Of a stretch of 64,000 nucleotides of DNA, positions 13,604-50,421 are shown in pieces. Both the position numbers and the translations under genes were made by a program. How positions within the stretch are numbered: the stretch's first letter is position 1; every line of letters begins with the position of its first letter. Source of the DNA: an uncultured Gammaproteobacteria bacterium (GTDB lineage Bacteria; Pseudomonadota; Gammaproteobacteria; UBA9214); the NCBI GenBank assembly GCA_963827755.1, contig CAWHCQ010000021.1:1-64000 (forward strand), read 5' to 3'. The notes under the pieces are model-generated. The model made no database searches, had not been told where the DNA came from, and worked only from the letters and a program-made list of their open reading frames with translations.

Positions 13604-13630
13604 TAAAGCCCCGGATCTGAAGGCCGATAA
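13604..13630 (+). promoter_or_regulatory. Sigma-28 (FliA) promoter
   Basis: TAAA-gccccggatctgaag(15 nt)-GCCGATAA, an exact consensus 60 nt upstream of ATG 13691. Confidence 0.8.
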
Positions 13631-13690
13631 ATACCAGGTTAGCGATTTGCCAGACAGGAATGGAACAACAGGAACTTGCCGAGGTGCACC

Positions 13691-14002
13691 ATGAAATCGA
13701 TTCTTAACGGCTTGATTTACTTATTGCTGTGTGCGGGGATATTTTATTCATCGACGGCACTGGCGTGCGATTCGGTAGTGGATGGCTGCCTGGGTTGCAG
13801 CGATGACGATCTCCCGGTTTGCCTGAACGAGCTTGTTCAGGACATCTGCAATGAAGGTGGCGGCGTTGAATCCTGCGACCGGAGACGTGTCTTCAAGGAT
13901 GCTGAAAGGCAGGTTACCCTGAGCACGGGCCGACACTTTTCGCGTGTACGCGCAATGTTCAGGGGCGCGCAGAAATATCAGGATCCATTCCGCAGACATT
14001 GA
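13691..14002 (+). CDS. Small secreted cysteine-rich hypothetical protein
   Basis: RBS GAGGTG; signal peptide MKSILNGLIYLLLCAGIFYSSTALA; six Cys in the mature part. Confidence 0.75.
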   Translation: MKSILNGLIYLLLCAGIFYSSTALACDSVVDGCLGCSDDDLPVCLNELVQDICNEGGGVESCDRRRVFKDAERQVTLSTGRHFSRVRAMFRGAQKYQDPFRRH

Positions 14003-45959: not shown

Positions 45960-48205
<2,246 letters not shown>

Positions 48206-48351
48206 TCCCTGTGGAAAAAGGTGCTCGAAAGCCTCTGAAACAAGGCTTGATTCGAGCGCCGGGTCAGGTCCTGAAATGAGCTTCGCAAGCTTTTCGTGAC
48301 TCATGTAAACACGAACGGCGGCGTGCAACCGGCGCCTGTAAAGCAGCAGGC

Positions 48352-48377
48352 AAAAAAAACCCGCCTTTCGGCGGGTT
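48352..48377 (-). terminator. Rho-independent terminator
   Basis: The minus strand reads AACCCGCC-GAAA-GGCGGG-TTTTTTTT. Confidence 0.85.
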
Positions 48378-48490
48378 GAAAACGCCTTTCGGCGTCGGAG
48401 GAGCCATTGAAACCGGTGTCTCTGCAATCCGGCCCGGGCTGTTGTGATACACCCGGACCCATTGCAGAACGCACCACATAGCGCTCTCTG
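48352..48490 (-). ncRNA. Candidate sigma-28-dependent small RNA (~140 nt)
   Basis: Exact sigma-28 promoter upstream, a long 5' hairpin, single-stranded CUCCUCC, two GAAA-tetraloop hairpins and a U8 tail. Confidence 0.6.
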
Positions 48491-48496
48491 CTCAGG

Positions 48497-48523
48497 TTAT
48501 CGGCGTGTACAGGAGTAACTTTA
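48497..48523 (-). promoter_or_regulatory. Sigma-28 (FliA) promoter
   Basis: The minus strand reads TAAA-gttactcctgtacac(15 nt)-GCCGATAA, with the extended TAAAGTT. Confidence 0.82.
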
Positions 48524-48694
48524 GAGGCTCGCAGCCGGAAAATCTGTAATATTATGTTTTATATGAATATTTAGTGTTTACAAGCGGCACAGGAGCGCCT
48601 TGCAGGCGCGATTCGATCCCCCGTACCGGCGCAAATACTTCTTGAATCGAAGAGCCACAGGGGAAACAAATGACACCCGGGACTTATTTATTAT

Positions 48695-49277
48695 CTAGCC
48701 GACGGTATCCCGGTGCGTATTTTCAGGGCGCCTGCCTGTGCCTGCCTGCAGGCGCTTTATAACCCTGGCTTCTGTTAACAGGGATTCCAGCTCAAGTGGC
48801 GCTGCAGGCACTGGATGATAACGGCAAGCAGGCGAGCAATTCATGCTGCCTGACCAGGTGAAAATAATCCGGGGTACCGAGATAATCGACCGCAAGCGAA
48901 AAGCCGTTGTCCAGGTGTTCCAGGGCATGCCGGTATTTACAACTGATCAACAACTGCCCGTACACCAGTTCCAGCAAGGCACGCTCACGGTCATTCCCGG
49001 TCGATGCTGCCAGTTGCCCGTAATCCGGCTCAATGCTGCGACCCATCCAGAAATTGCAGGCAAGCATTAGCACATGCAACTGGAAACAGTCCACGCCTTC
49101 ACACAAGCGTGAACGCAGCCCGTATTGTGCAATTGCCGCCAGCGCCTCTGCCAGGTCCTTGCCGACGGGATCGGCGTACCAGGCGGACAGTGAGACCGGC
49201 TGCCGGTCCAGCAGCCGGGTTACCGGTAACCCCGCATCGGCGGCATCCACAAGCTGTTTTGCCTGTTTCATTTCCAT
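48695..49277 (-). CDS. Hypothetical protein, probably one gene with a +1 frameshift at ~48813
   Basis: ORF 48792..49277 (...LELVYGQLLISCK...HELLACLPLS) continues after removing one base as VPAAPLELESLLTEARVIKRL...HRDTVG*. Confidence 0.6.
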
Positions 49278-49341
49278 TTTTTCAGCTTACACGCGGACAG
49301 ACCGCAATGGTACATTGCCGCCGGGCACGCACAGGAACTGA

Positions 49342-50421
<1,080 letters not shown>

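Follow-up and report, generated by a model that had tools for sequence, protein, structure and literature searches.

A predicted stand-alone small RNA with a sigma-28-type promoter, kept in gammaproteobacteria that seem to have lost the flagellum

Why would a bacterium whose flagellum has apparently been lost keep a small RNA (sRNA) gene behind a promoter of the flagellar type, and what would such an RNA do? The question is raised by a short intergenic region at positions 48352 to 48523, on the minus strand, of a 64,000-nt stretch of DNA from an uncultured gammaproteobacterium (contig CAWHCQ010000021.1 of assembly GCA_963827755.1). This whole stretch, called the window here, belongs to contig C21 of a 52-contig draft genome that is 91.8% complete with 5.4% contamination. 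The original prediction, drawn from the letters of the window, placed in this region a sigma-28 (FliA)-type promoter followed by hairpins, GNRA loops and a terminator, and on reading the sequence again we find all of these on the minus strand, at the coordinates collected in Table 1. Our best explanation, to which we assign a probability of roughly 0.6 as a whole, is a stand-alone trans-acting sRNA that is driven by sigma-28, acts through an anti-Shine-Dalgarno seed and has outlived the flagellum.

That the sRNA is a real, conserved gene standing on its own is very likely. A BLAST search with a 191-nt stretch as the query matched 29 further genus genomes strongly; identity is 87-97% over the 3' 65 nt, and the 5' part has diverged much more. 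A covariance model (R1) was built on the 3' module, which comprises the seed, a hairpin and the terminator, and searches with R1 find the sRNA in 30 of the 37 genus genomes and in 18 of the 19 of high quality (completeness of 90% or more, contamination of 5% or less). All of the genomes with the sRNA but one have a single copy; the window genome gives one match at 77.9 bits, the next best reaching 29.7 bits. The seed motif CUCCUCC is invariant across the 30 genus loci, which were gathered by BLAST via the 3' module and not by the seed motif or the promoter. A terminator scan of 47800-49400 returned the sRNA terminator as its single match, and no co-oriented gene lies past it, the next feature being the 3' end of the convergent katG. 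In the relatives, where the convergent hemF follows instead, the downstream flanks vary, so the stand-alone character proposed in the original prediction holds up. A cis-acting leader, attenuator or riboswitch was considered and rejected, since there is no co-oriented gene directly downstream and no match to a riboswitch family in Rfam.

Table 1 Features of the predicted sRNA gene, in window coordinates, and the fliA locus elsewhere in the same genome. MFE, minimum free energy.
Feature	Position	Strand	Remarks
Predicted primary transcript, ~138 nt	48352..48489	(-)	predicted to start at the conserved CA, 7-8 nt past the -10 box, and to end with the U-tract
-35 box CTAAAG, sigma-28 (FliA)-type	48524-48519	(-)	TAAAG part is 48523-48519
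Spacer, 14 nt	between -35 and -10 boxes	(-)	equivalently TAAA-N15-GCCGATAA
-10 box GCCGATAA, sigma-28-type	48504-48497	(-)	
Conserved CA	48490-48489	(-)	29 genus loci
5' structured domain	48415..48475	(-)	MFE and centroid folds; variable part of the sRNA family
Outer stem, 5 bp	48475-48471 with 48419-48415	(-)	encloses the long hairpin
Long hairpin UUCUGCAAU...AUUGCAGAG	48469-48420	(-)	
Seed GGCUCCUCC	48405-48397	(-)	CUCCUCC is 48403-48397
GNRA hairpin GACGCC-GAAA-GGCGUU, 6 bp	48396-48381	(-)	
U-rich spacer UUUUCA	48382-48377	(-)	ends overlap neighbouring stems
Intrinsic terminator AACCCGCC-GAAA-GGCGGGUU + U8	48377-48352	(-)	sequence reading and terminator scan
fliA locus	G000:C12:134001-153900 (L153)		FleQ, GGDEF/EAL, FleN-like ATPase, FliA, three open reading frames lacking a Pfam match (184, 267 and 91 aa), followed by genes of glycogen metabolism

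The structure of the RNA was assessed on an alignment (A1) of 39 distinct members with a sigma-28-type promoter; 49 sequences matched a loose promoter expression, of which 4 were discarded as false matches and 6 as belonging to another subfamily. RNAalifold, applied to a MAFFT alignment of the 39, recovered the two 3' hairpins alone, so the 5' helices were taken from the folds of single sequences and all 35 pairs were counted on the unrefined alignment. Paired bases occupy 88.4% of cells, compared to 34-52% when the partners are slid by 1-3 columns. Changes on both sides are seen in 18 of the 35 pairs (10.8 ± 1.9 in shuffles, of which 1 in 500 reached 18), and the covariation score, 0.197, compares with 0.113 in shuffles (none of the 500 reached it) and at most 0.067 on sliding; these figures are inflated by the kinship of the sequences, and the structure was itself derived from them. 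In helices 1-4, which form the 5' domain, 76-88% of cells are paired and 15 of 21 pairs show two-sided changes. The two 3' hairpins are near-invariant within the genus, where the closing pair of the small hairpin covaries between U-A and C-G (34 UA, 4 CG, 1 UG). In distant families its second pair changes, by eye, from A-U to G-C (GGCGC...GCGCU), and across the family the terminator arms covary as ACCCGCC, CCCCACC, CCCCGCG and others. The stem covariation on which the original prediction proposed to judge the RNA is thus present.

What the RNA would do is suggested by the seed, in which CUCCUCC is the exact complement of the Shine-Dalgarno sequence GGAGGAG. On the strength of this motif and of analogy, we lean slightly towards repression of translation through an anti-Shine-Dalgarno seed. 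A U-rich spacer and a U8 tail fit an sRNA of the Hfq type; both features are predicted here from the sequence (UUUUCA and U8), and Hfq is encoded in the genome (104 bits). Over the 39 homologues the mean unpaired probability of the seed is 0.64, compared to 0.40 for the whole RNAs, and it exceeds 0.5 in 32 of them.

Targets were sought in the window genome and in relatives. Exact seed-complement k-mers gave no extended match at a credible start in the window genome; 9-mers occur before the gene for the small subunit of a [NiFe]-hydrogenase, a 74-aa open reading frame (ORF) and recA. When duplexes with the 14-nt seed were computed for 13,215 candidate starts, the outcome was a flat list of mostly internal starts, and a scan with a 42-nt piece was discarded, as it returned meaningless long duplexes. 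Neither fleQ, fleN, fliA, the GGDEF/EAL gene and hfq nor the genes behind the other sigma-28 boxes described below showed notable pairing with the seed. The best match anywhere is at the flgH ribosome-binding site of a congener (G036), where GCGUCGGAGGA is an 11-nt perfect complement of UCCUCCGACGC and the duplex reaches -25.2 kcal/mol, the next best ORF in 80 kb of flagellar region giving -18.3; flgH may be a lineage-specific target. Two further candidates were rejected. In 3 of 4 congeners the predicted 5' end of the flagellin leader carries GUCGGAGG, a pairing that is not kept in distant holders of the sRNA. The other candidate is a gene for a secreted protein of 305 aa, in which GCGTTCTGGAGGA is conserved at the ribosome-binding site; its duplexes attain -21 kcal/mol in the window genome and its closest relative, but no more than -12 to -16 in most relatives. 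The original prediction had the sRNA blocking GGAGGAG ribosome-binding sites; put like this, the claim is not borne out by our scans, which give no target conserved across the family, and such blocking is something that we still infer.

One alternative, which we think unlikely, is that no anti-Shine-Dalgarno pairing takes place at all and that the conserved part is a protein-binding or sponge module, or pairs with sites in coding sequences. The invariance, spanning about 30 nt of seed and hairpin, exceeds what a seed would need, and the target searches gave no conserved mRNA. In Escherichia coli, according to one report, MotR and FliX pair inside coding sequences and FlgO is perhaps not a conventional base-pairing sRNA (PMC10578931). 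However, the complementarity of CUCCUCC to GGAGGAG is perfect, and because the stem of the small hairpin covaries, the role of that hairpin should be structural and not sequence-specific. CU-rich unpaired motifs in the double-hairpin sRNAs of Burkholderia are moreover predicted to cover ribosome-binding sites (PMC5688073).

We turn now to the promoter. The expression TAAAG-N14-16-GCCGATAA matches twice in the window and not once in any of 100 shuffles, and it matches four times in the 2.85-Mb genome, where about 0.14 matches would be expected by a hand estimate from base composition. Promoters were stacked for the 29 of 30 genus loci that are readable, L023 being cut by a contig end. In each of the 29 the seed is preceded, at a distance of 86-116 nt, by a -10 box of the G[CT]CGATA type, which in the relatives reads G[CT]CGATA(A/G/C). 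When these loci are stacked ungapped on the -10 box, CTAAAG or CTCAAG stands at a fixed distance in 29 of 29 (with one CTCAGG and one CTAAAT), and neither the spacer nor the upstream DNA is conserved. Since the -10 box was the anchor, its conservation is partly by construction, which is not the case for the -35 box and the spacing. The CA conserved 7-8 nt past the -10 box suggests a start near 48489. FliA is encoded in full length (TIGR02479, 274 bits versus a cut-off of 189.6, with sigma-70 regions r2, r3 and r4) and exceeds the cut-off in 35 of the 37 genus genomes. We therefore see both the sigma-28 promoter of the original prediction, as a conserved element, and the fliA gene that would have to serve it.

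Flagellin genes offer a comparison within each lineage. Upstream of those of all four flagellated congeners examined we read, by eye, CTAAAG-N14-GACG(T/C)TA(A/T), a two-part box spaced like that of the sRNA. Flagellin genes of the distant holders have CTAAAG-N15-GCCGTTAA or GTCGTTAA, resembling their own sRNA boxes (three of five by regular expression, the other two by eye). It is mainly because the sRNA boxes resemble late flagellar promoters lineage by lineage that we accept dependence on FliA, and we consider it probable that a sigma-28-type promoter drives the sRNA.

We regard as improbable the possibility that the sRNA is real and yet does not depend on FliA, its box being recognised by a different sigma factor or having some other purpose. 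In genomes without flagella FliA might then be inactive and the RNA made from a sigma-70-like promoter. A weak site of the latter kind, TAAACA-18-CATAAT, lies upstream at 48580-48551 (9 of 12 matches); the genus flagellin -10 boxes (GACGTTAA) are unlike GCCGATAA; and no FlgM was found in the window genome to control FliA. The canonical sigma-28 consensus is TAAAGTTT-N11-GCCGATAA, however, and the box fits it in both halves and in spacing. The box is also conserved in 29 of 29 loci, whereas the region of the sigma-70-like site is not conserved, the boxes of distant homologues match their own flagellin promoters, and FliA is intact in 35 of 37 genomes.

Some further sequences can be recorded alongside these promoters. 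An AT-rich stretch, ATATAAAACATAATATTACAG, is found at ~48545-48570 (-), 20-45 nt upstream of the -35 box, and recurs in some relatives as a ATAAAACA-N-TAAGTTA-like sequence. By eye it resembles the consensus of an IHF site, and it may be what is left of a sigma-54 promoter architecture, or else act as an UP-like element. The second exact sigma-28 box in the window, at 13604-13630 (+), stands ~85 nt before an ORF at 13676-14002 (+) that encodes 108 aa, is Cys-rich, has a signal-peptide-like start and lacks a Pfam match. The other two exact boxes of the genome lie outside the window, at G000:C21:165680 (+) and G000:C44:58003 (-); one of them precedes two pilin/pseudopilin-like genes (N_methyl; GspH-like) and the other a 207-aa ORF without Pfam match. 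These two may belong to a residual FliA regulon.

The genes around the sRNA are arranged in a conserved order, namely hemF, the convergent sRNA, orf161 on the sRNA strand, and hemB. In 28 of the 30 loci, hemF, orf161 or hemB lies within 1.5 kb of the sRNA. The window genome differs in that katG lies between hemF and the sRNA. The upstream neighbour orf161, at 48792-49277 (-), is 268 nt from the sRNA and is kept in the genus (37-81% identity in tblastn matches), without a Pfam match. This gene is co-oriented with the sRNA and syntenic in many relatives, and UTR (untranslated region)-derived sigma-28 sRNAs exist in E. coli, as PMC10578931 describes, so the sRNA could be imagined as a processed 3' end of the orf161 transcript, with a promoter-like box of secondary importance. 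We judge this very unlikely, as the box keeps a fixed spacing with a conserved CA at the expected start, hairpin-like sequences lie, by eye, between orf161 and the box in some relatives, and family members in other contexts have sigma-54 or sigma-28 boxes of their own.

Several peculiarities of this neighbourhood deserve mention. The katG gene, 45978-48205 (+), reads in three overlapping frames (45978-46697, 46483-47946 and 47909-48205). Some contigs from sediment metagenomes are without one base at 46589-46595 and at 47934, precisely where the katG frame changes, so the two frameshifts may have arisen in assembly or be peculiar to a strain. The relatives have no katG at this spot, and in them hemF abuts the sRNA. 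Right after the terminator, many relatives (e.g. L019, L020, L022, L025, L030, L036, L060 and L080) carry an element of ~40 nt, GCCTACAGGGATGTAGGTACGTCGCGG...GCAGGGATGC, that is not in the window and may be a REP-like (repetitive extragenic palindrome) repeat or a conserved flank. Summed contig depth over 48344-48437 peaks above both flanks in four sediment metagenomes (for example, 128.6 versus 14.6 and 8.2 in X1; 291.5 versus 0 and 4.6 in X2); this peak fits many related organisms sharing the 3' module and is not evidence of expression.

The strand of the RNA has so far been taken from its elements. The minus-strand RNA folds at -68 kcal/mol (z = -5.2), with 0 of 200 shuffles as stable, and the plus strand is equally foldable (z = -5.3), so the fold alone cannot pick the strand, and the minus strand is chosen because of the promoter, the U-tract and the GNRA loops. 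The alternative left by the original prediction, in which a plus-strand peptide gene of 24 codons, starting with TTG (48407-48481), would have GGAGGAG as its ribosome-binding site, with or without an antisense RNA, can be set aside: the frame exists, with GGAGGAG 3 nt before the TTG on a strand as foldable as the other, but the TTG and the frame lie in the variable 5' domain, the least conserved, indel-rich part of the alignment, the RNAs measure 131-162 nt and have indels whose lengths are not divisible by three, CAATGG (the TTG on the plus strand) becomes AAAGG or GAAGG in most relatives, conservation is highest in what would be the 5' untranslated region, and T-tract and promoter make sense on the minus strand only.

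How, then, does a sigma-28-type promoter come to be in this genome? Flagellin, FlgM, FlhA and FlgH were not found in the window genome, a 92%-complete draft, in which FleQ, FleN and FliA remain. In polar flagellates fliA is flanked by flagellar and chemotaxis genes; the fliA locus here has no flagellar structural or chemotaxis genes. The late-flagellar class to which the original prediction assigned the sRNA is hence a poor description of it in this genome, where those four were not found and the fliA locus is stripped of flagellar genes. Since the flagellar link is seen in relatives and flagellar genes were not found here, we take this link to be one of ancestry and not of present context. 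FlhA, which belongs to the flagellar export gate, was detected in 17 of the 37 genus genomes, three of which (G008, G017 and G018) have it in pieces. The sRNA is present in 13 of these 17 and in 17 of the 20 without detected FlhA, including all nine of high quality, each of which keeps FliA; the sRNA promoter box is intact in the genomes without detected FlhA. An sRNA of the flagellar cascade and its sigma factor thus seem to have been kept in lineages that lost the flagellum.

As far as sequence patterns tell, the 3' module is common to several gammaproteobacterial families, with a 5' domain and promoters that vary. A pattern of the module core, scanned in one genome per species, gave at least 116 stretches; the terminator is present in 95 among the 116 matches listed, the other 21 being chance matches in unrelated DNA. 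True matches come from metagenome-assembled genomes (MAGs) titled Thiogranum, Thiohalobacter, Thiohalobacteraceae, Ectothiorhodospiraceae and Gammaproteobacteria, some with three copies of the module, and from the isolate Thiohalobacter thiocyanaticus Hrh1. Common to all is CUCCUCC-GACGC-UGAAAA-GCGUU-U(n)-terminator, preceded by differing 5' domains. Promoters were counted in the 92 distinct loci, among the matches listed, that have at least 300 nt upstream. In this set 47 loci have a sigma-54-type box, TGGC[AC][CT]-N5-[TC]TGC, and 63 a sigma-28-type box; the opposite strand, as a control, gave 0 and 1. Both occur in 19, with starts 45-59 nt apart, and many of the 28 loci with a sigma-54 box only have, by eye, a degenerate CTAAAG-N14-(A/G)CCGCTAC that the expression missed. 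Members from the window genus have the sigma-28 box only.

A more distant sample, in which 150 other families of the class are represented by a single genome each, was searched with R1. Matches above 50 bits were obtained in 4 of the 150 families and matches of 35-41 bits in 4 more; the remainder of the 25 R1 matches are weak and probably terminators. The distant copies read (G/A)ACUCCUCCG(A/G)CGC, the seed being kept as (G/A)ACUCCUCC, and boxes of the sigma-54 type, the sigma-28 type or both precede most of them. Three of the four loci above 50 bits match the sigma-28-type expression and two also match that for sigma-54; the boxes of G153, and a sigma-54 box with one mismatch in G181, were read by eye. 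FlhA is encoded in five of five distant holders tested. We also note that the flagellin mRNA leader starts right after its sigma-28 box with a hairpin (roughly GGAGCGGUGAAUA...UAUAUCCGCU) that is conserved across distant families (L154-L157, L210-L214).

The mechanism that we propose is as follows. RNA polymerase with FliA would transcribe a trans-acting sRNA of ~138 nt from about 48489 to 48352 (-), and its CUCCUCC seed would pair, probably aided by Hfq, with Shine-Dalgarno regions of the GGAGG type and so reduce how strongly a group of mRNAs is translated. The flagellar cascade, leading from FleQ/sigma-54 to FliA/sigma-28, is the probable origin of the family as one of its outputs, to judge from the tandem promoters of flagellated lineages. 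The window genus would then have lost the sigma-54 promoter of the sRNA, and the window genome the flagellum too, keeping FleQ, FleN, FliA and the sRNA. If the flagellum has indeed been lost, the sRNA should now act on non-flagellar targets.

Several points weigh against this account, besides the effect of kinship on the covariation figures. Promoter use, RNA ends and strand are predictions. The seed is partly masked in the window copy, where the mean unpaired probability of CUCCUCC is 0.38, and in the closest relative, L008, this probability is 0.06; in both, the 5' end of the RNA pairs partly with the seed, as the MFE fold of the window copy displays. The exposed seed of the original prediction accordingly stands for most homologues and holds only in part for the window copy. 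Nothing stands out in the exact and thermodynamic target scans of the window genome, and the flgH complement is limited to one subclade (5 exact and 1 with G.U among the 16 genus genomes with flgH), being absent from the five distant holders. The -10 boxes of the genus flagellin genes differ from that of the sRNA. Finally, the absence of flagellar genes means that they were not found, and is unproven, because the genome is a draft, 92% complete with 5.4% contamination. As an observation on the same part of the RNA, a block GATTTTGTCATTGCAC between the long hairpin and the seed is absent from the window genome and from its two closest relatives (L001 and L008) and present in other members of the genus.

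By sequence and predicted fold the sRNA is a new RNA family, absent from Rfam, that is of a familiar type and implies no new mechanism. The Rfam covariance scan gave no match on the sRNA stretch at gathering scores, in agreement with the original prediction, which had recognised no known family; below threshold there were Gut-1 (25.4 bits, plus strand), RF02278 (24.3), isrK (19) and anti-hemB (16.8). RF02278 (Betaproteobacteria toxic small RNA), the second-best match on the stretch and the best on the minus strand, comprises the Burkholderia double-hairpin sRNAs (ncS03, ncS05, ncS27 and ncS62) of 57-92 nt (PMC5688073). As in that family, the 3' module here (48405-48352) is a CU-rich unpaired motif with two hairpins, the second of them the terminator, and there are several copies in some genomes, with three in some of our relatives. 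The match (E = 0.015) is below the gathering score of 50, however, so the sRNA fails the family threshold, and it differs in its ~138 nt with an extra 5' domain, in being single-copy in the window genome and in its flagellar-sigma-type promoters. RF02837, anti-hemB (Burkholderia RNA 7), shares the vicinity of hemB and gives a weak match, but its 16.8 bits compare to a gathering score of 49.5 and cover the terminator end alone (48351-48402); orf161 lies between the sRNA and hemB, and the sRNA is not antisense to hemB.

Closer parallels are found in the function of flagellar sRNAs. The sigma-28 sRNAs of E. coli have FliA-regulon promoters, are associated with Hfq and add a post-transcriptional layer to the flagellar cascade, as summarised in a 2023 report (PMC10578931). 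The sRNA described here likewise has a FliA-type promoter at the right distance from its 5' end. In contrast to the E. coli RNAs, which are UTR-derived in that account, it is intergenic and stands alone, and it carries an anti-Shine-Dalgarno motif where MotR and FliX pair inside coding sequences; we see no sequence or Rfam relation between the two groups, and FlhA, flagellin, FlgM and FlgH were not found in the window genome, unlike the E. coli case. In Campylobacter jejuni, CJnc230/FlmE depends on RpoN and CJnc170/FlmR on FliA, with flgM and Cj1387c as targets (Konig et al. 2024, PMC11187230). There, as here, sRNA is wired to the sigma-54 and sigma-28 flagellar tiers. The two systems differ in that C. 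jejuni has two RNAs, one per tier, as that text has it, whereas here one family has both types of box, often in tandem before the same RNA; C. jejuni moreover belongs to another phylum, and no homology was detected. The literature search, from which subscription journals and supplements were excluded, gave nothing on an sRNA of Thiohalobacter or Thiogranum, nor on a tandem sigma-54/sigma-28 sRNA in Gammaproteobacteria.

A further, tentative thought concerns the lineages without a flagellum. The sRNA and FliA might form a regulatory pair that has become uncoupled from the flagellum, such that FleQ, FleN, FliA and the sRNA act as a free-standing lifestyle circuit in lineages that lack a flagellum repeatedly or of old, controlling non-flagellar genes without FlgM or the hook-basal-body checkpoint. 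We would not lean on this idea. Candidate members of such a circuit are the other three exact sigma-28 boxes, including the one before the pilin-like operon. If it were true, the flagellar sigma factor would be an 'orphaned' one, and the sRNA the conserved core of its output.

sRNAs linked to sigma-28 or sigma-54 have been worked out in few models, E. coli and Campylobacter, judging from PMC10578931 and PMC11187230. To these the present family would add a widely conserved, stand-alone example from environmental Gammaproteobacteria resembling sulfur oxidisers. It is modular in build, with one module of seed and terminator set behind exchangeable 5' domains and flagellar-sigma promoters. The genus also offers a natural experiment, as about half of its genomes searched are without FlhA yet have FliA and the sRNA, which separates flagellar from other roles of FliA and the sRNA. 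Since Thiohalobacter thiocyanaticus is cultured and carries a homologue, at locus L043 behind boxes of both the sigma-54 and the sigma-28 type, the question is testable. For us, the most interesting aspect is the evolutionary one, namely the retention of an sRNA of the flagellar cascade in a sediment bacterium that seemingly has no flagellum.

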